From Bacteroidales bacterium (GTDB lineage: Bacteria; Bacteroidota; Bacteroidia; Bacteroidales; UBA10428), in assembly GCA_041737295.1 (NCBI GenBank), contig JBGSSA010000163.1:6898-70897 (forward strand): a stretch of DNA of 64,000 nt, given 5' to 3'. The position numbers and the translations under genes were made by a program. Positions 21,568 through 60,535 of this stretch are shown one piece after another. How positions within the stretch are numbered: the first letter of the stretch is position 1; the number at the start of each line of letters is the position of its first letter. The notes under the pieces were generated by a model, which was not told the origin of the DNA, made no database searches, and was given only the letters and a program-made list of their open reading frames with translations.

Positions 21568-21734
21568 AGTTTTGCAGTTTTGCAGTCTGAACTGTTCTGC
21601 AGTTCTGCAGTTCTGCGGTTCTGCACCCTAGAAGTCTAGAAGCCTAGAAGCCTAGAAGTCATGCAGTCGTGCAGTCATGCAGTCTAAAACTGTTCTGCGG
21701 TTCTGCACCCTAGAAGTCTAGAAGCCCAGAAGCC
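21568..21734. repeat. Mosaic of octamer tandem repeats with an internal duplicated block
   Basis: AGTTTTGC, AGTTCTGC, TAGAAG(T/C)C and AGTC(A/G)TGC units; block actgttctgc..ggttctgcaccctagaagtctagaagcc occurs twice. Confidence 0.9.
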
Positions 21735-21761
21735 ACTTTTTTATCTCTCAACTTTTCACTG

Positions 21762-21791
21762 CTTGTCCCTTGTCACTCGTCACTCGTCACT
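21762..21791 (-). repeat. Heptamer repeat G(T/G)GAC(G/A)A overlapping the stop codon of the AlbA_2 gene
   Basis: Minus strand gtgacgagtgacgagtgacaagggacaag encodes V-T-S-D-E-stop. Confidence 0.85.
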
Positions 21792-22429
21792 TTAAATAAA
21801 ACCCCCTTCTCTGTTATCTCCATCCGGATCACGTTCAGCAGCATCAGGTTGATCAGGATCTTCTCAGCATCGGCCTTTCCGATGCGTGCAATTTTTGTGA
21901 ATTTCGACAGGGAGATTTTTTCATTTTCTTTAAGGTAGGTCATCAGTATTTTCTCTTCCTGCCCGTAATTCAATAGTACCCCCTTTTGTTTTCCCTGGCT
22001 CTGCCAAAACCCGACAATAATGCCGGCTGCCTGAATGTTCTGATCTCCCACTCTTACATATGCAATCCATTCCCCGGCATCATTCGGGGCAAAATGGGGT
22101 TTTGCCTGGCTGGCAGGAATTTCAATCTCAAGCACGCAGCGGCCGTCTACAACCCATTTCCTGATATGATAATCAACGGCAGGTTTACAGTACAGGTGAG
22201 CCGACGATTCGGCCATATATATTTCTTCTTCCGACCGGATCCCGGTGATCCTCCCGTTATCTTTTACCCCGATGAGCAGTTTTCCTCCATCTGTATTGGC
22301 AAATGCAGAAAACGTACGTGCCATTTTTTTGGCGTCACTGATTTCGAATTTAAAATCCAGACGCTGGTTTTCACCTAACTGGATAAGGGCGTTGAGATAT
22401 TGACCCGCTTTTTGCGAATCGGTCTTCAT
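21773..22429 (-). CDS. AlbA_2/Schlafen-like domain protein with C-terminal helix-turn-helix-like region
   Basis: GENQRLDFK, AFANTDGGKLLIGVKDNG, AYVRVGDQ; ATG 22429 preferred over 22519. Confidence 0.85.
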   Translation of the reverse strand: MKTDSQKAGQYLNALIQLGENQRLDFKFEISDAKKMARTFSAFANTDGGKLLIGVKDNGRITGIRSEEEIYMAESSAHLYCKPAVDYHIRKWVVDGRCVLEIEIPASQAKPHFAPNDAGEWIAYVRVGDQNIQAAGIIVGFWQSQGKQKGVLLNYGQEEKILMTYLKENEKISLSKFTKIARIGKADAEKILINLMLLNVIRMEITEKGVLFKVTSDE

Positions 22430-33965: not shown

Positions 33966-35264
33966 ATGAAGACAATCCATATCTCCCCTTCCTTTTTCGC
34001 CAGGAACAGGCAGCGGTTAACACTTTCCCTGAAAAGTAATTCGCTGGCCATTGTTCATTCAAACGATGAAATGAATCGTACCGCAGATCAGTATTTTCCT
34101 TTCCGTCAGCACTCTGATCTGTTTTACCTGACGGGTATCAACCAGGAAAAGACTACCCTTTTGATGGCTCCTGCAATTGAGGATGAGTCCCTTAGGGAGA
34201 TCCTGGTTATCCGGCGGTCAAATCCGAAACTTGAAACATGGGAAGGTCATAAGCTTACCCGGGAGGAAGCAGGTTTGATTTCCGGAATTAAAAATGTCAA
34301 ATTTGAAGATGAGATAGAATCGCTGCTGGCCCCCATCATGATGCAGGCTGAACATGTGTACCTCAATCTTCCTGAATACCTCAAATTTATACCCGAATTA
34401 CCCGGGAGAGACCACCGTAAGGGAGAGGAACTCATGAAGAAATTCCCGGCACATAAATATGAACGGCTGGCACCTCTTATGCAGGATCTGAGAGTTACCA
34501 AATCGGAAGAAGAAATCGGTCTCATCAGCCAGGCCTGTGACATCACGAGGAAAGCGTTTCTGAATACGCTTCAGACACTAAAACCGGGAATGATGGAATA
34601 TGAGGTTGAAGCCCTGATTACCCGCGATTTCATCAGGGAAGGCGCCAGGGGACATGCCTATCAGCCCATAATAGCCTCCGGATCAAATGCCTGCGTCCTG
34701 CATTATATTGATAACAACGACACCTGTTCGGATGGTGAACTCCTGTTGATGGATTTTGGAGCAGAAATTGGAAATTATGCCGCAGATTGTACACGCACAA
34801 TTCCTGTCAATGGCCTTTTTACGGCAAGGCAGAAGGATCTGTACAAATCCGTACTTGAGGTTTTTAAATTCGCCCGTTCCCTGATGGTTCCCGGAAGTAC
34901 GATAAATAAAGTACACCAGGAAGTGTGCCGGAAATTTGAAAAGGAACACATCCGCCTTGGGCTTTTTACACAAGAGGCTGTTGAAGCGCAGGATAGGGAA
35001 AATCCATTGTGGCAGCAGTATTATATGCATGGAACCTCTCATTTCCTGGGACTGGATGTTCATGATGTAGGAAGCAAGGACCAGGAATTCAGGCCCGGCA
35101 TGGTACTAACCTGTGAACCCGGGATCTACCTGCCCGGAGAACAAACCGGGATACGGCTTGAAAACAATATCCTTATTACCCGTGAGGGCAATGTGGACCT
35201 GATGAAGGATATTCCTATTGAACCGGATGAAATAGAGGAATTGATGAGAAGGAGTAGGGAGTAA
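33966..35264 (+). CDS. Xaa-Pro aminopeptidase (M24B), paralogue 1
   Basis: FRQHSDLFYLTG, DFGAE...ADCTRT, HGTSHFLGLDVHD, TCEPGIY, GIRLE. Confidence 0.92.
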   Translation: MKTIHISPSFFARNRQRLTLSLKSNSLAIVHSNDEMNRTADQYFPFRQHSDLFYLTGINQEKTTLLMAPAIEDESLREILVIRRSNPKLETWEGHKLTREEAGLISGIKNVKFEDEIESLLAPIMMQAEHVYLNLPEYLKFIPELPGRDHRKGEELMKKFPAHKYERLAPLMQDLRVTKSEEEIGLISQACDITRKAFLNTLQTLKPGMMEYEVEALITRDFIREGARGHAYQPIIASGSNACVLHYIDNNDTCSDGELLLMDFGAEIGNYAADCTRTIPVNGLFTARQKDLYKSVLEVFKFARSLMVPGSTINKVHQEVCRKFEKEHIRLGLFTQEAVEAQDRENPLWQQYYMHGTSHFLGLDVHDVGSKDQEFRPGMVLTCEPGIYLPGEQTGIRLENNILITREGNVDLMKDIPIEPDEIEELMRRSRE

Positions 35265-35285
35265 GGAGTAAGGAGTAGGGAGTAA
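35250..35285 (+). repeat. Heptamer GGAGTA(G/A), about 5 copies, containing the peptidase stop codon
   Basis: ggagtag ggagtaa ggagtaa ggagtag ggagtaa. Confidence 0.9.
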
Positions 35286-35458
35286 CCCCAAAAACAAATA
35301 GTGGAACGGGAAATGCGAGCAAGTCGTGCATCAATCTGAGAAATCTCAGAAAATCTGCGAGAAAAAAGCCCCGCAACCTCAACTCTAATTAGTGTGATAC
35401 GAGTAAGATCCATTCAATCAGTCCTTTAAAATCCAGTTATATAAGAGTAGGGAGAAAT

Positions 35459-35830
35459 TTAACTGCAAAATTTCTCCGGGTGATTTATCATGGAGATTAG
35501 CATTTTACGGATTTCACTATATTTTGAAAAGAGCAAATCATGTGTCTGTAAATCAATATATTTCATGTCTCGCGACATATTAAGCCAAACTTCTGTTTCA
35601 AATTCTTCCGCCAGAGCGTCCGATATTTTATTTACAAAGGCTTTGAGATATAATCTTTTTGCCCAGGATTCTGCAATATTGGCTGGGATTGAACGGGAGG
35701 ACCTTCTAATTTGGTCAGTTAATGCATATTTTTCTTCTTTGGGGAAGAATCTCGATAATTCATTTATTTCCATAGAAAGCAAATAGGCTTTCTGATAGAC
35801 AATTAAGTCTCTGAATCCCTGCATTTCCAT
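35459..35830 (-). CDS. Four helix bundle protein (23S rRNA IVS/TIGR02436-like family)
   Basis: FRDLIVYQKA, FPKEEKYALTDQIRRSSRSIPANIAE, ETEVWL; ATG 35830 preferred. Confidence 0.92.
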   Translation of the reverse strand: MEMQGFRDLIVYQKAYLLSMEINELSRFFPKEEKYALTDQIRRSSRSIPANIAESWAKRLYLKAFVNKISDALAEEFETEVWLNMSRDMKYIDLQTHDLLFSKYSEIRKMLISMINHPEKFCS

Positions 35831-35875
35831 TGTGATATATATTAGGCCTAACTTTTTGACTCCCACCAAATGGCA

Positions 35876-35972
35876 CCTCACTCCTCACTCCCTACTCCCT
35901 ACTCCCTACTCCTTACTCCCTACTCCCTACTCCCTACTCCTCACTCCCTACTCCCTACTCCCTACTCCTTAC
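35876..35972 (-). repeat. Heptamer array, about 14 copies (GGAGTAG on minus strand), containing the stop of peptidase paralogue 2
   Basis: (c/t)tactcc and tcactcc units repeated; reverse complement of the 35250 array. Confidence 0.95.
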
Positions 35973-37359
35973 CCCCCACCGCCTTCTCCACTTCAGCCGC
36001 TTCCTTCGCTATCGGCTTTCCGATAACCTTATATCCCTTCGCAGTAACGAGAATATTGTCTTCAATGCGAATACCGCCGAAGCCCCGGAATTTTCCGACC
36101 GCATCATAATTGATGAAATCCCTGTAGCGGCCTTCGTTGCGCCACTTGTCCATCAGTTGTGATATAAAATAGATACCCGGTTCAACCGTTACGGTAAATC
36201 CTTCCTGCAATCGCCTAGCCATCCGCAGATAGGCTGTGCCAAAGTGGTCAGAACGCTTGAATTCGTTGTCATATCCTACATAATCTTCACCTACGTCTTC
36301 CATATCATGCACATCCAGCCCAATCATATGGCCTATTCCATGCGGGAAAAAGAGTGCATGGGCACCATTTTGCACGGCCTCACCCGTATCGCCTTTCATC
36401 AATCCCATATCTTTTAAACCTGAAGCGATTACACGTGCGGCGGTCATGTGAACCTCAACAAACGGTTTTCCAGGCTTGATTGCCTGGATGGCTTCAGTCT
36501 GTGCTTTCAATACAATGTTGTAAATATCTTTTTGCTGCACGGATAACTTACCTCCTACAGGATATGTCCGTGTAATATCGGTTGCATAATGCATGGGGGA
36601 TTCGGCCCCGGCATCAATGATTAGCAGATCCCCTTTTTTCAGTTCATTTCCATAAAAGTGATTGTGCAGGGTTTCTCCCCTTACTGAACAGATAATCGGA
36701 TAAGCCATCCTGCAGTTTTTTGACAGGATGGAACCTTCCAGTGCCCCGGAAACATTGTACTCAAAAGAGCCGGGCCTGATCTGTCGGATGGCTTGCAGAT
36801 ACGCATCGCGGGTGATGTCAGACATGGTGGATTCCATTTCCCCGATCTCATGCGCATCCTTTACCGAACGCTGGGCAACAACAGCCTTGATCAGGGCAAC
36901 CGAAGCATTCCTGTCAACTTCCTCATACTTCAGGTTATCATAGTATGCAAGTTGTAATCGTCTTTGTTCCCGGTAAGGGGGAAGATAATGAACCTCGCGG
37001 TTATGTGCAATTACCCTGAACACATCCCCATCCAGCTTTTCTATCGCTTTAATCTGCTTGATCCCGCTCTTGAGTGCCTTCTCCAGGAGGGGCTCCTGGT
37101 TCCCTATCCAGATAATATCCTCCAGCGTCGGATCGGTGCCATAAATTGTCTCTTCCCCGGATTCTGCGTCGATCATGCCCGCAATATCAGGTATGTCGAG
37201 ACCAAAATAATACAGGAATGAACTATCCTGGCGAAACGGATAACTATTGGCTTTATAATTCATCGATACTTCCTTGTTGCCGAGAAAAAGAATGACTCCT
37301 TTACCGACTAGCTCCTTCAGGCGCTTTCTTCTTTGTATATAAACTTCTGCGGGAAACAT
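35962..37359 (-). CDS. Xaa-Pro aminopeptidase (M24B), paralogue 2
   Basis: FRQDSSFLYYFG, DAGAE...TDITRT, HGIGHMIGLDVHD, TVEPGIY, GIRIED. Confidence 0.92.
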   Translation of the reverse strand: MFPAEVYIQRRKRLKELVGKGVILFLGNKEVSMNYKANSYPFRQDSSFLYYFGLDIPDIAGMIDAESGEETIYGTDPTLEDIIWIGNQEPLLEKALKSGIKQIKAIEKLDGDVFRVIAHNREVHYLPPYREQRRLQLAYYDNLKYEEVDRNASVALIKAVVAQRSVKDAHEIGEMESTMSDITRDAYLQAIRQIRPGSFEYNVSGALEGSILSKNCRMAYPIICSVRGETLHNHFYGNELKKGDLLIIDAGAESPMHYATDITRTYPVGGKLSVQQKDIYNIVLKAQTEAIQAIKPGKPFVEVHMTAARVIASGLKDMGLMKGDTGEAVQNGAHALFFPHGIGHMIGLDVHDMEDVGEDYVGYDNEFKRSDHFGTAYLRMARRLQEGFTVTVEPGIYFISQLMDKWRNEGRYRDFINYDAVGKFRGFGGIRIEDNILVTAKGYKVIGKPIAKEAAEVEKAVGGKE

Positions 37360-37496
37360 GGCTAAACGTTTTTGAATGAACATTAAAATTAATCGCTATT
37401 TTCATTTTAAACCAACAAATTCAACAATAATTAAAAACCCTCTATTCAGTTTATGCGTATAAAAAATATCTTCGTTCACAGACCATTGAAAAATCC

Positions 37497-38216
37497 ATGC
37501 CATACAGGAGATTACCCAATACTGACTTGGCCCGCCTGAGAGCCCTCAGAATTGCCTTTGAAAAGGGAAAAGAATTGCCACCCTTTCAGTTGGCCTTCTC
37601 GCAGTCCACCCTGCAGAAGATACAATCGAATCTCCATATTTTTGAGGCAGCTGTTCAGGAAAGCAGGCAGGCTTATAATATACAGATTTTAAAAAGCCAG
37701 GAATATATCAAACTCCTCAAAAAGGTAAAACTGTATATGTCCCATTTTGTTCAGGTTACCAATATGGCCATCATCCGTGGAGACCTCAACGCATCCGATT
37801 GCAATTATTTTGGATTTACCCATGGACACAAGGTTCCCTCTTTTAATTCAGAAAAAGAGGTAATTGCATGGGGTGAAAAACTTATCCAGGGTGAGACCCT
37901 CAGGATTAAAAACAGGCTGACCCCGGTTGTAAATCCATCCATTGCCGTAGTCAAAGTATGGTATGAAAAATTTGTCGATGCAAACCTTTTTCAAAAAAAT
38001 CTGCAGAAAAACCTTCAGCGAAGCCAGAAAAATCTGATCGGATTAAGGAAACTCGTTGATGGCATTATTTCACAGATCTGGAATGAGGTAGAACTGTATT
38101 ACCAGGATCAGCCCGATGAAGTTAAACGGAATAACAGCAAGATTTACGGGATTGTTTACTTCTACAGAAAGAACGAGCTTCCCGCCAGTAACCTGTCAAA
38201 AAATCTTTTGGGATAA
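37497..38216 (+). CDS. Conserved hypothetical helical protein
   Basis: 239-aa ORF starting MPYRRLPNTDLARL; fills the gap between known genes. Confidence 0.7.
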   Translation: MPYRRLPNTDLARLRALRIAFEKGKELPPFQLAFSQSTLQKIQSNLHIFEAAVQESRQAYNIQILKSQEYIKLLKKVKLYMSHFVQVTNMAIIRGDLNASDCNYFGFTHGHKVPSFNSEKEVIAWGEKLIQGETLRIKNRLTPVVNPSIAVVKVWYEKFVDANLFQKNLQKNLQRSQKNLIGLRKLVDGIISQIWNEVELYYQDQPDEVKRNNSKIYGIVYFYRKNELPASNLSKNLLG

Positions 38217-41857: not shown

Positions 41858-42035
41858 GGCTTCTGGGCTTCTGGGCTTCTGGGCTTCTGGTGGGGGACGT
41901 CTTCGGTTCAGAAACATGAACACCAGCTTCCTCCATAAACTATCAACTATCAACCATCAACCATCAACTTTTAGTTTTTATCTTTTAGTTTTTCACTATT
42001 CTTCATTGTTTATTGTTCATTGTTCATTGTTCATT
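41858..42035. repeat. Mosaic of short tandem repeats in the nadB/glyQS divergent region
   Basis: GGCTTCTG x4; C(T/C)ATCAA x4; TTTTAG-like units; TT(C/T)ATTG x5. Confidence 0.88.
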
Positions 42036-58013: not shown

Positions 58014-60506
58014 ATGGAAAATAGCCGAAGACACTACCTGCAGTATGTATTTCCTGTTGTAATTTTCTTGTTCCTTTCTATCGCCTATTTTGTCCCTGAT
58101 ATCCTCCAGGGTAAAAAAATCAATCAGCATGACATAATGCAATATAAGGGAATGTCGAAGGAAATAACTGATTTCAGGACAACATACGGGAAAGAGCCTT
58201 TATGGACCAACAGCATGTTTGTCGGTATGCCTGCCTACCTGGTTTCTACCCAGTACAGGGGTAATTTCCTGCAGTACGTTCACCGTATCTTTACCTTATA
58301 TAATTCCAGGCCTGTTAGTTTCATATTCCTTTATCTCATTGGGGCCTATCTCGCTTTTCTGCTGTTTGGGCTCAGTCCGTGGGTAAGTTTTCTTGGGGCC
58401 ATTGCCTATGGCTTTTCATCTTATTTCTTTATAATTATACAGGCCGGTCATGTTTCAAAGGTCCTGGCACTGGGGTATATGACGCCCATCATAGCCGGAG
58501 TTTATGCAGCATTCCGGGGAAAGGCTTTGTTGGGAAGCCTTGTGGCGGGAATTTTCCTGGGGCTGCAGATCTTCATTAACCACCTGCAGATTACCTACTA
58601 TACAATGCTCATCATCCTGATGTTTGGAATTTTCGAACTTGTATATGCCATCCGGAAGAAAACCTTTGCTGATTTTCTCAAGCCGTTTCCCTGGCTTTTC
58701 CTTTTTGTCGCTCTGGCTATCGGGGCCAACTTCAGCAATTTGTATACAACTTATGAATACGGAAAATATTCAATACGCGGCAAGTCGGAACTTTCGGTAA
58801 ATGCGGAAAACAAAACATCCGGACTGGACAAGGATTATGCTATGCAATGGAGTTATGGTATAGGGGAGACCTTTACATTGCTGATCCCTGATTTTATGGG
58901 AGGAGCGTCTTCCATGGAGCTGAAAAATAATTCAAACACCTATGAATTTATAAAGAATACCTATGGCGCCGGCGAGGCGAAAAAATTTGTAAAGAGCGTT
59001 CCCGTTTACTGGGGAAAACAGCCAATCACTTCGGGTCCGGTATATGTAGGGGCGGTAGTTTTATTTCTGTTTATCCTGGGGATGTTTCTTGTGAAAGGCC
59101 GAGTCAAATGGTGGCTGTTCACTGTAACCGTTGTGTCAATAGCACTTTCCTGGGGACACAATTTTACCTCCCTGAGCAATCTGATGTTCGATTATTTCCC
59201 GGGTTATAACAAATTCAGAACGGTTTCCATGACCCTGATCATGGCTGAATTTGCCATGCCTTTCCTGGCCATTCTGACCTTGTGGGAAATTATCAACGGC
59301 AATCCCCAGAAAAAAGAATTTCTAAAAGCGCTGAAATTTAGCTTCTTTGGACTTTCGGGCCTTATTCTGATCTTGTTAGTGATCAGCGGATCGTTTGACA
59401 TGTCGGCCCCCATAGATGAACAATTGCGATCACAGGGACTGGATAAGATCGTGGAAGCCATTCATAAAGACCGTCTTTCCCTGTTTCGCACAGATGCATT
59501 CAGGTCCCTTGTATTTGTTTCTCTGTCCGCTGCGCTTGTATATTTTGCCTGGATGAAAAAAATCAAGTTCACTACGCTAATTATTCTAACAGCTTTTTTG
59601 CTGCTTATTGATATGTGGCCTGTGAACAAAAGATTCCTTGGCAGCCGGGATTTTCTTACTGCCAAAGAAGATAAAAACCTGTTCACTCCCACTACTGCCG
59701 ATATGGTTATCCTGCGTGACAAAGACCCGAATTTCAGGGTCCTGAACCTTACAGTCAGTATTCTTCAGGATGCGACCACTTCATATTATCATAAGTCGCT
59801 GGGCGGGTATCATGGCGCCAAGATGAGAAGGTACCAGGAATTGTTTGATCATAGCATTGAAAAAGAACTGAATGATCTTATCAATACCCTCCAGAAAAGG
59901 CCGAGTCCTCAGGCAGTTGATAGTACATTCGCCACATTGGGTACATTGAATATGCTGAACACCCGGTATATTATCTACAATACTGAGGCACCCCCGCTTG
60001 TAAACCGGCATGAATTGGGAAATGCCTGGTTTGTAAACAACTATACAATGGTCCCTGATGCAGATGCTGAAATCCTGGCTGTTTCTTCCGGTCTAAAACC
60101 CGGCCAGGAAGCTGTAATTGATTCCCGTTTTGAAAACGAGGTAAAACAGTTAACCCTTGTCCCGGATACGACAGCCCGGATTTCCCTGACCGAATACAGG
60201 GTAAACTACCTGAAATACAGTTCCATTACATCCAGTGAACAATTGGCGGTATTTTCTGAAGTGTATTATGATAAGGGATGGCAGGCTTTTATAGATGGCA
60301 AACCGGCTCCTCACTTCAGGGCCAATTACCTGCTCAGGGCAATGAGGGTTCCGGAAGGCACGCATACAATAGAATTCAAATTTCATCCCAACAGTTATTT
60401 TATGGGTGAAAAAGTCTCCATGGCCAGTTCGTTGTTGCTGTTGTTGCTGGCAGTGGGAATTGGCTGGAGGGAGTGGAAGAAGAAAGTAGGGAGTAAGGAG
60501 AAATGA
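58014..60506 (+). CDS. YfhO-family membrane protein (GT-C-like)
   Basis: WTNSMFVGMP, HLQITYY, GGYHGAK, MLNTRY, FSEVYY..GW, ANYLLRA. Confidence 0.88.
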   Translation: MENSRRHYLQYVFPVVIFLFLSIAYFVPDILQGKKINQHDIMQYKGMSKEITDFRTTYGKEPLWTNSMFVGMPAYLVSTQYRGNFLQYVHRIFTLYNSRPVSFIFLYLIGAYLAFLLFGLSPWVSFLGAIAYGFSSYFFIIIQAGHVSKVLALGYMTPIIAGVYAAFRGKALLGSLVAGIFLGLQIFINHLQITYYTMLIILMFGIFELVYAIRKKTFADFLKPFPWLFLFVALAIGANFSNLYTTYEYGKYSIRGKSELSVNAENKTSGLDKDYAMQWSYGIGETFTLLIPDFMGGASSMELKNNSNTYEFIKNTYGAGEAKKFVKSVPVYWGKQPITSGPVYVGAVVLFLFILGMFLVKGRVKWWLFTVTVVSIALSWGHNFTSLSNLMFDYFPGYNKFRTVSMTLIMAEFAMPFLAILTLWEIINGNPQKKEFLKALKFSFFGLSGLILILLVISGSFDMSAPIDEQLRSQGLDKIVEAIHKDRLSLFRTDAFRSLVFVSLSAALVYFAWMKKIKFTTLIILTAFLLLIDMWPVNKRFLGSRDFLTAKEDKNLFTPTTADMVILRDKDPNFRVLNLTVSILQDATTSYYHKSLGGYHGAKMRRYQELFDHSIEKELNDLINTLQKRPSPQAVDSTFATLGTLNMLNTRYIIYNTEAPPLVNRHELGNAWFVNNYTMVPDADAEILAVSSGLKPGQEAVIDSRFENEVKQLTLVPDTTARISLTEYRVNYLKYSSITSSEQLAVFSEVYYDKGWQAFIDGKPAPHFRANYLLRAMRVPEGTHTIEFKFHPNSYFMGEKVSMASSLLLLLLAVGIGWREWKKKVGSKEK

Positions 60507-60535
60507 GTAAGGAGATTACTCCCTACTCCTTACTT
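60486..60535. repeat. Inverted pair of GGAGTA(G/A) heptamers between convergent genes, probable hairpin/terminator
   Basis: agtagggagtaaggag...agtaaggagattactccctactccttact. Confidence 0.8.

Follow-up and report, generated by a model that had tools for sequence, protein, structure and literature searches.

Leptospira is among the organisms whose 23S rRNA genes carry an intervening sequence (IVS) with an open reading frame (ORF). For Coxiella burnetii, the published account places an S23p ORF within a 28-bp terminal inverted-repeat stem in helix 45 of the 23S rRNA, with three to four tandem heptamers upstream of the ATG in a number that varies among strains, reports RNase III cleavage in vitro at the first repeat, and cites an older idea that the IVS ORF serves mobility (PMC4990558). 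Few uncharacterised families of small proteins are as common in bacteria as PF05635/TIGR02436; 18 PF05635-type genes have been recorded inside cas loci (PMC3936711) and others in rRNA insertions of candidate phyla radiation (CPR) bacteria (PMC11270868), and PF05635 is described as resembling Avd, the accessory protein of diversity-generating retroelements (DGRs) (PMC10053308). Tandem heptamer arrays have been puzzling since the first cyanobacterial genomes, and published examples include GGGAATC in Xanthomonas and GGGGA(C/T)T in Nostoc (PMC4692102) as well as TAACTGA in Beggiatoaceae, Cyanobacteria and Bacteroidetes (PMC4679880). Here we describe a 64,000-nt stretch of a Bacteroidales genome (the window; positions 6898-70897 of contig C52 of the source genome, G000, which has 5.42 Mb in 258 contigs, a GC content of 0.434 and a completeness of 95.5%), in which a gene for a four-helix-bundle (4HB) protein lies between inverted heptamer arrays at the ends of two convergent peptidase genes, pepP1 and pepP2. 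We think that this region is probably one copy of a widespread IVS-type selfish insertion cassette located outside rRNA, with the 4HB gene in the loop of a heptamer-array hairpin.

The locus resembles the rRNA IVSs, as far as these are described, in several respects: a PF05635-family ORF lies within terminal inverted repeats that are predicted to form a stem of at least 20 bp, tandem heptamers occupy the arms as they do the 5' arm region of the Coxiella IVS, the segment between the arrays is AT-rich relative to the host (GC 0.37 vs 0.434), and the distribution is patchy, as is that of the IVSs, which are regarded as selfish. It differs in that it lies between two protein genes, both of the M24 peptidase type, and not in a helix of the 23S or 16S rRNA; its arms are long arrays of 5 and 14 units, and excision by RNase III is assumed here by analogy. 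With the heptamer arrays described for bacteria it shares intergenic tandem arrays of 7-8 nt, present in hundreds per genome, often in convergent inverted pairs and with fast-changing copy numbers, and its 5.3 and 13.9 copies fit the pattern of short tandemly repeated repetitive (STRR) sequences (at least three tandem 7-nt copies, intergenic, many per genome); the difference is that the arrays at the pepP site are the arms of a gene cassette whose lineage is tracked by their genome-wide abundance. The arms are also terminal inverted repeats of the sort seen in transposons and MITEs (miniature inverted-repeat transposable elements), and the presence of gene-less intergenic hairpin-forming inverted repeats (~30 in the source genome) beside gene-bearing copies recalls the non-autonomous and autonomous members of MITE, repetitive extragenic palindrome (REP) and bacterial interspersed mosaic element (BIME) families, from which the cassette differs in having tandem arrays as arms, with a unit that differs between families, and no visible transposase or REP-associated tyrosine transposase (RAYT)-type gene. 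A full-text literature search, with subscription journals mostly outside its coverage, returned no paper on a package of gene and heptamer arms as a class outside rRNA, and the main texts of PMC4692102, PMC4679880 and PMC2700814 (together with 13 of the 19 supplementary files of the last) make no mention of IVSs or of a four-helix-bundle protein.

Insertion and arm turnover at the pepP site

pepP1 and pepP2 form a convergent pair conserved in the genus, and the cassette sits at their junction with the following layout (window coordinates):

33966..35264, + strand: pepP1, an M24 Xaa-Pro aminopeptidase-like gene (PF00557 E 7.9e-57, PF05195 E 2.5e-28)
35249..35285: distal arm on the left, GGAGTAR x5.3, rich in G on the + strand (Tandem Repeats Finder, period 7, AAGGAGT register)
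35286..35441: extra stretch of 156 nt within the cassette, not present in the G020 ortholog (ortholog comparison)
35442..35457: proximal two-unit arm remnant directly after the 4HB stop (repeat search, third copy at 81%)
35459..35830, - strand: four-helix-bundle (4HB) gene, 123 aa (PF05635 and TIGR02436 profile matches)
35831..35879, - strand: AT-rich leader of 49 nt from the right arm to the ATG (read from the sequence)
35880..35976: right arm, ACTCCCT x13.9 on the + strand (Tandem Repeats Finder, 28-nt super-period)
35962..37383, - strand: pepP2, another M24 Xaa-Pro peptidase-like gene, in the same direction as the 4HB gene (PF00557 E 5.6e-47, PF05195 E 2.3e-23)

The left and right arrays pair as inverted arms over 34 nt at 97% complementarity (repeat search), in agreement with the preliminary description of this stretch, which had seen inverted heptamer arrays around a four-helix-bundle gene and both convergent peptidase genes ending inside them. 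The last codons and TAA stop of pepP1 (..EELMRRSRE*) indeed lie in the left array, and the last codons and stop of pepP2 (..AVGGKE*) in the right one, which reads GGGAGTA when followed in the direction of the 4HB gene and of pepP2 and, taken as a plain period of 7, spans 35887-35976 with 12.9 copies (Tandem Repeats Finder). The 4HB start that fits the homologues is the ATG at 35830, giving 123 aa, and not the GTG at 35881 of the ORF listing, and the leader word AAAAGTTAGG is preserved across the four orthologous cassettes.

Among 30 loci compared, the pepP site holds the 4HB cassette in four, arrays only in four, another gene in one (G021) and an empty short gap without arrays in 18, with three loci being uninformative. 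The carriers are G000, G020, G001 and G024, whose pepP1 genes are 87-100% identical, and the comparison shows that the cassette was acquired at the pepP1/pepP2 junction in the ancestor of four species. The earlier suggestion of a small mobile or repeat-associated cassette is therefore upheld by presence/absence polymorphism and, as detailed below, by inverted arrays that flank the family at large; the breakpoints among relatives fall at the arrays, and stable synteny of the gene without repeats is not the case.

The two arms evolve in concert, in that they keep matching each other while the unit sequence turns over. G000 and G020 have GGAGTAR in both arms; both arms of G001 are of the GAGAGGT type, with a single old GGAGTAG unit at the outer edge of the right arm; and in G024 the left arm is GAGAGRT and the right arm combines both kinds, with the new units on its inner side and the old GGAGTAG units on its outer side. 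Because G001 and G024 hold old units at the outer edge only, both arms appear to have changed to one new unit from the inner side. The same 4HB lineage (71% identity) is found in G014 and G009 at another locus, after a gene ending ..YWENEW*, where the copies have the arms GGAGTAG/CCCTACT, and the pepP sites of both genomes are without a cassette; these second-site copies show that gene and arms travel together as one unit. More distant lineages (55-61%) lie at yet other loci with other units, such as GCGTAAA and CAGTGG-type 6/9-mers. The pepP site forms a natural series of states (an empty gap, arrays alone, a cassette, a cassette whose arms have switched, and a cassette with a broken gene), and this series and the second-site copy tie the 4HB family, the heptamer arrays and the rRNA intervening sequences together.

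Three minor observations concern the structure of individual cassettes. Within the extra stretch at 35286-35441, a module of ~44 nt (about 35333-35376) has 18 further partial matches on C34, C73, C14, C33 and other contigs of the source genome, partly in tandem (blastn), and resembles a modular intergenic repeat inserted between the two-unit remnant of the arm and the distal array. At the cassette site on contig C212 of the source genome (L013), beside a tRNA gene, the corresponding gene of G004 (L006) is inverted relative to both flanks, and a comparison of L006 with L002 of G008 shows the same relative flip, with the flanks reversed and the gene not; this suggests recombination between the inverted arms (loop inversion) or re-insertion. 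The loci L104 and L109, which have 97.7% identical genes and unmatched outer flanks beyond 300 nt, were considered as a case of recent mobility and rejected: homology continues ~180 nt past the gene and reaches ~100 nt into the downstream gene, which makes an orthologous site probable.

The 4HB family and its flanking arrays

The 4HB protein matches PF05635 (E 3.9e-31, 107.9 bits against a cut-off of 33.8, profile positions 1-105 of 106) and TIGR02436 (E 2.1e-29, 101.9 bits against a cut-off of 24), and similarity to PDB sequences identifies 2RLD (E 1e-11) and 2GSC (E 4.9e-7) as solved relatives. Judged by these matches, it is a clear member of PF05635/TIGR02436, and its four-helix-bundle fold is predicted by similarity. 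It contains DQIRRSSRSIPANIAES, in which the R-x3-S-x3-N-x2-E part of the published family motif, GxxRxxxSxxxNxxE (PMC3936711), is present and the leading G is replaced by D. The dN/dS among the 4HB orthologs is 0.06-0.11, compared with 0.06 for pepP1, and the gene is under purifying selection. The protein is functional, and its most likely role would be that of a nucleic-acid-binding factor acting on the arms. Two orthologs look defective: that of G020 (L212) has no stop and continues across the C-rich arm into pepP1 in antisense, for a total of 274 aa, and that of G024 (L217) is interrupted by one TGA and one TAA inside the match, either of which could come from decay or from sequencing error in the metagenome-assembled genomes (MAGs). 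A PADLOC search returned a single weak match (PDC-M42B, E 0.0025) and no defence-system assignment.

Identity with the DGR protein Avd was considered and rejected. The 4HB protein is a small helical-bundle protein with a distant sequence relation to Avd (bAvd PF22296 E 7.8e-4, NF033474 E 2.4e-5), and its relatives 2RLD and 2GSC, with five chains each, have pentameric crystal forms. However, the scores are far below the cut-offs (24.6 bits vs 80 for NF033474 and 20.4 bits vs 40 for PF22296), the cassette has no template or variable repeat, and the 95.5%-complete genome has no match to the reverse transcriptase profile PF00078. Because of these scores, and because no reverse transcriptase was found in the genome, we conclude that the 4HB protein is not a DGR Avd.

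The association of the family with heptamer arrays, which the earlier proposal had put forward as a check, is found in the source genome, in its relatives, across phyla and on viral contigs. The source genome has six PF05635 genes, all six with flanking 7/8-mer arrays, and the unit is different in each (GGGAGTA, GACTRGG, TTGATAG, GGCTGAA, ACGATTT and one octamer). In the orientation of the gene, the six cassettes consist of an upstream array, an AT-rich leader of ~25-110 nt, the ATG, the ORF, the stop, 10-30 nt and an inverted array. Since this genome is array-rich (523 period-7 and 328 period-8 arrays of at least 3.5 copies), a within-genome control was needed. Among 3,799 evaluable crude genes, inverted 7/8-mer arrays with a unit mismatch of at most 1, within 230 nt and on both sides, were found at seven, three of which are 4HB genes; the frequencies are thus 3 of the 4 evaluable 4HB genes vs 4 of the 3,795 remaining ones. 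Another two 4HB genes lie too near contig ends to be evaluated. Arrays on both sides in any orientation flank 86 of the 3,799 genes, and 801 have an array on at least one side. Of the adjacent inverted pairs in the genome with a loop of at least 200 nt, four are ordered G-rich then C-rich, and a 4HB gene lies inside three of these; a fourth pair around a 4HB gene, on C14, has a unit with as many G as C.

PF05635 is present in 33 of 41 relative genomes. For 31 4HB genes from 30 of the relatives, an array was found upstream of 28, downstream of 27 and on both sides of 24, with 16 pairs inverted with at most one unit mismatch. We then scanned across phyla with one genome per species, using an alignment of the close subfamily, which yielded 80 loci, 76 of them with a callable ORF, from, among others, Bacteroidota, Ignavibacteria, Chlorobi, Acidobacteria, Nitrospirae, Desulfobacterota, Geobacter, Nitrosomonas, Gammaproteobacteria, Clostridia, Fibrobacter, Planctomycetes-type bacteria and Patescibacteria. 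Because this closer alignment was used, the four divergent paralogs having no conserved block, the sample represents one 4HB subfamily and not the whole family. Tandem Repeats Finder (TRF) placed an array upstream of 50 of the 76 genes, downstream of 49 and on both sides of 37, and 23 pairs were inverted with at most one mismatch. As a TRF-independent measure, the 230-nt upstream flank was locally aligned to the reverse complement of the downstream flank, with the 99th percentile of shuffles as the threshold, and 86 of 107 cassettes (one duplicate locus removed) had inverted repeats above it, with a median arm length of 34 nt and median distances of 48 nt between arm and start and 24 nt between stop and arm. 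The density of arrays beside the gene exceeded that 400-1500 nt away in the relatives (4.81 vs 0.37 per kb, 13-fold) and in the diverse set (2.67 vs 0.45 per kb, 6-fold), and the period was 7 in 56 of 65 and 69 of 92 proximal arrays, respectively. Arrays lie on both flanks of 6 of 10 loci on viral contigs. None of the 20 cassette loci sampled for rRNA context lies within rRNA.

Two apparent rules about the arms were rejected. A long upstream arm with a short downstream arm is true of the source-genome cassettes with two scored arms and fails in the relatives (9 vs 10). The preliminary description had also stressed that the arrays supply the stop codons of both flanking genes; this is true at the pepP site but is incidental, since a stop triplet in inward reading occurs in 72 of 140 arms compared with 63.6 +/- 4.6 from unit shuffles (~1.8 sd), and stop supply was rejected as a general reason for the heptamers or for the arm polarity described below. 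As further observations, 4HB genes occur in several relatives in clusters, many within a few tens of kb (G010:C10, about 2.4-27 kb; G002:C8, 331-396 kb; G018:C13), and L008 has two adjacent cassettes with separate arms for each.

Arm pairing, arm polarity and the proposed mechanism

The minimum free energy (MFE) fold of the 751-nt sense RNA, at -244.1 kcal/mol (z -5.4), contains an outer long-range stem that joins the two arrays and encloses the ORF, and the remnant at 35442-35457 pairs with inner units of the right array in this predicted fold. An RNase III gene is present in the source genome (C128). A comparison of duplex energies favoured the sense strand over the antisense strand (69 vs 35, p 1e-4), with energies barely above those of shuffles; as a test it was rejected as too noisy, shuffled flanks folding almost equally well, and a column-wise wobble count was substituted.

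This count is one of several results that weigh against the IVS-type selfish cassette. The mismatch columns of the arms comprise 160 that are G-U compatible in the sense RNA, 161 in the antisense RNA and 222 transversions, with no RNA signal. Because the wobble columns are equal on both strands, arm complementarity is not visibly kept by selection on a sense RNA stem, and because the arm mismatches are not RNA-filtered, we attribute the matching of the arms to a DNA-level process; the long-range pairing between arrays envisaged in the preliminary description is predicted by the fold, but without visible RNA-level selection in the mismatch columns. An identical contig of 151 nt, from an RNA library, spans 35739-35864; it gives neither strand nor ends and may represent carried-over DNA. 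The authors of the Coxiella IVS study concluded that S23p is probably not made (PMC4990558). The search in and around the cassette gave no transposase, integrase or reverse transcriptase, as had been noted earlier for the first two, leaving no known mobility engine; the Pfam scan behind this statement covered four local ORFs, and the named ORFs within 3 kb are pepP, sdh and CPBP-like genes. A comparison of the junction with empty sites revealed no obvious target-site duplication, and because the arrays overwrite the gene ends, the original insertion junction is unreadable. The six paralogs of the source genome are very divergent (23-33% identical among the four aligned) and bear no sign of recent transposition, so that mobility rests on old events. 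The pepP sites of G048, G002, G010 and G014 hold arrays without a gene, with unrelated units, which implies that arrays can exist or arise without the gene. Finally, 21 of the 107 cassettes are without significant inverted flanks.

We propose the following mechanism for an IVS-type cassette. The cassette was inserted at the ends of the convergent peptidase genes, and the flanking stop codons in the arrays would be a by-product of this position and of array growth. The arms might be kept matched at the DNA level by replication slippage and arm-to-arm template switching, processes that are known for quasipalindromes. Transcription would probably occur by read-through from pepP2, or from the cassette's own leader, and the transcribed arms could pair into a stem of ~35-40 bp around the ORF. 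RNase III may then cut the arm stem and separate the cassette RNA from the host mRNA, as it does for rRNA IVSs.

The arms have a fixed polarity, which we regard as a new regularity: the 5' arm has G>C in 79 cassettes, C>G in four and equal G and C in three (binomial p 4e-19), and gene-less hairpins of the source genome have the same polarity (28 vs 2, with 6 neutral). The polarity is the same on both strands, regardless of the orientation of the gene, as follows from the strand symmetry of an inverted repeat. Rho loading on outgoing transcripts or a strand-specific structure come to mind as causes, and we offer them as ideas only.

Public sequencing runs were also inspected, and the four RNA runs among them hold 5-9% of the sampled words. 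Contigs from the public runs break at the arrays; three low-depth joints have short sides (21-32 nt) and are not trusted. The summed contig depth over the ACTCCCT array at 35880-35976 reaches thousands in biofilm and rhizosphere metagenomes, and this depth, together with the contig breaks, implies that arrays of the ACTCCCT unit are common in many organisms and fragment assemblies. For annotation, the cassettes explain short repeat-encoded C-terminal tails, array-borne stop codons and metagenome contig breaks at arrays.

Genome-wide arrays and alternative explanations

A broader proposal, which we put forward only tentatively, is that PF05635 genes with heptamer arms form a cross-phylum mobile class without transposase or reverse transcriptase, in which each lineage acts on its own unit and seeds the gene-less arrays and hairpins of Bacteroidota, cyanobacterial, Xanthomonas, Geobacter and Beggiatoa genomes, the rRNA IVSs being a special case. 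Such a package may connect the unexplained heptamer repeats seen in bacterial genomes with an orphan family of proteins.

A different reading of the link with genome-wide arrays overlaps the IVS-type cassette but casts the protein as the driver: every 4HB lineage would serve as the master or trans-acting part of a heptamer family of its own, recognising the unit and promoting the spread or maintenance of gene-less arrays, much as an autonomous transposon serves MITEs. We judge this to be unlikely, although a good part of the array data agrees with it. The ~30 gene-less inverted pairs of the source genome have loops under 200 nt, several have units of the six cassettes, and gene-less GGAGTAR hairpins are among them (for example C220:13125-13261 and C29:20557-20716); the six cassette units all belong to abundant array families of the genome, which, however, has ~120 unit families for six genes. 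Arrays of period 6-9 are denser in genomes with PF05635 (36 in 523 kb from 12 genomes) than in those without (5 in 420 kb from eight genomes; one-sided Mann-Whitney p 0.007, the significance being overstated because the genomes are related), and the source genome has 0.157 per kb, whereas G027 and G033, with 3-5 4HB genes each, have no arrays in the 34-40 kb sampled.

The unit-specific comparison, in which windows matching GGAGTAG x3 with at most two mismatches were counted on both strands, gave 75, 14, 6, 40, 52 and 153 windows in the six genomes with the pepP-site 4HB lineage and 17, 5, 2, 0, 12, 1, 0, 0 and 0 in nine genomes without it (one-sided Mann-Whitney p 0.0026, overstated here too by the relatedness of the genomes). 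GGAGTAG-array abundance thus tracks the 4HB lineage clearly but not absolutely: no GGAGTAG or GAGAGGT window occurs in G048 (99% complete, four contigs), which of the relatives lacking a pepP-site cassette is the closest, but G045 and G003 have 17 and 12 GGAGTAG windows without the lineage. Likewise, the unit of the cassette arms is the genome-wide dominant one of the two units in three of the four pepP-clade species, with G020 being discordant. A code from protein to unit across the family was tried and rejected, as there is no correlation below 60% protein identity; unit similarity follows protein identity above 60% only, where 56% of pairs are within one mismatch compared with 4-7% otherwise. 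The family is mostly basic (median pI 9.0, 52 of 76 members above pI 8), as might suit a protein that drives repeats, but the copy at the pepP site is near neutral (pI 6.7), and there is no biochemical precedent for a helical bundle of 120 aa moving DNA.

The arrays might instead be regulatory or insulating sites of the host, such as operators of a global regulator, bidirectional terminators or Rho-loading sites, with the 4HB gene as an ordinary regulated host gene. With the fixed polarity, transcripts that run outward are rich in C and poor in G, as Rho prefers, and a hairpin between convergent genes can serve as a terminator. In Geobacter metallireducens, paired sites of four octamers and five heptamers are read in the published account as binding sites of unknown global regulators (PMC2700814). 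We nevertheless consider this explanation improbable. The units vary by cassette and are replaced over a host divergence of a few percent, unlike operators; most relatives are without a cassette at the pepP site, and gene and arms occur together at another locus as well. The Rfam scan of 35000-36200 gave no rRNA match and, at E<=1, just two sub-threshold chance matches. That the 4HB gene simply landed between two arrays of an array-filled genome (849 arrays of period 6-9 with at least 3.5 copies in 5.42 Mb, and one on at least one side of 801 crude genes) is already contradicted by the within-genome controls and by the recurrence of the design in low-background phyla and genomes and on viral contigs, and we give it almost no weight.

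Several of the paired 4x octamer sites of G. metallireducens adjoin transposase genes of the IS110 and IS481 families, and others lie between neighbouring genes, for example nifD and nifK or proB and proA (PMC2700814, Table S4); hairpin arrays may be insertion targets for IS110-type elements. In the window, a 239-aa ORF adjoining pepP2 (37497-38216, + strand) has no Pfam match at E<=0.01. Other 7/8-mer arrays of the window lie at 120-154, 238-269, 21568-21792, 41858-42035 and 60485-60514; the last, AGTAAGG x4.3, is of the unit family of the cassette arms yet has no adjoining 4HB gene, and the arrays of the window include TGACAAG x5, CCTCGTC x4.6 and clusters of different octamer and heptamer arrays.

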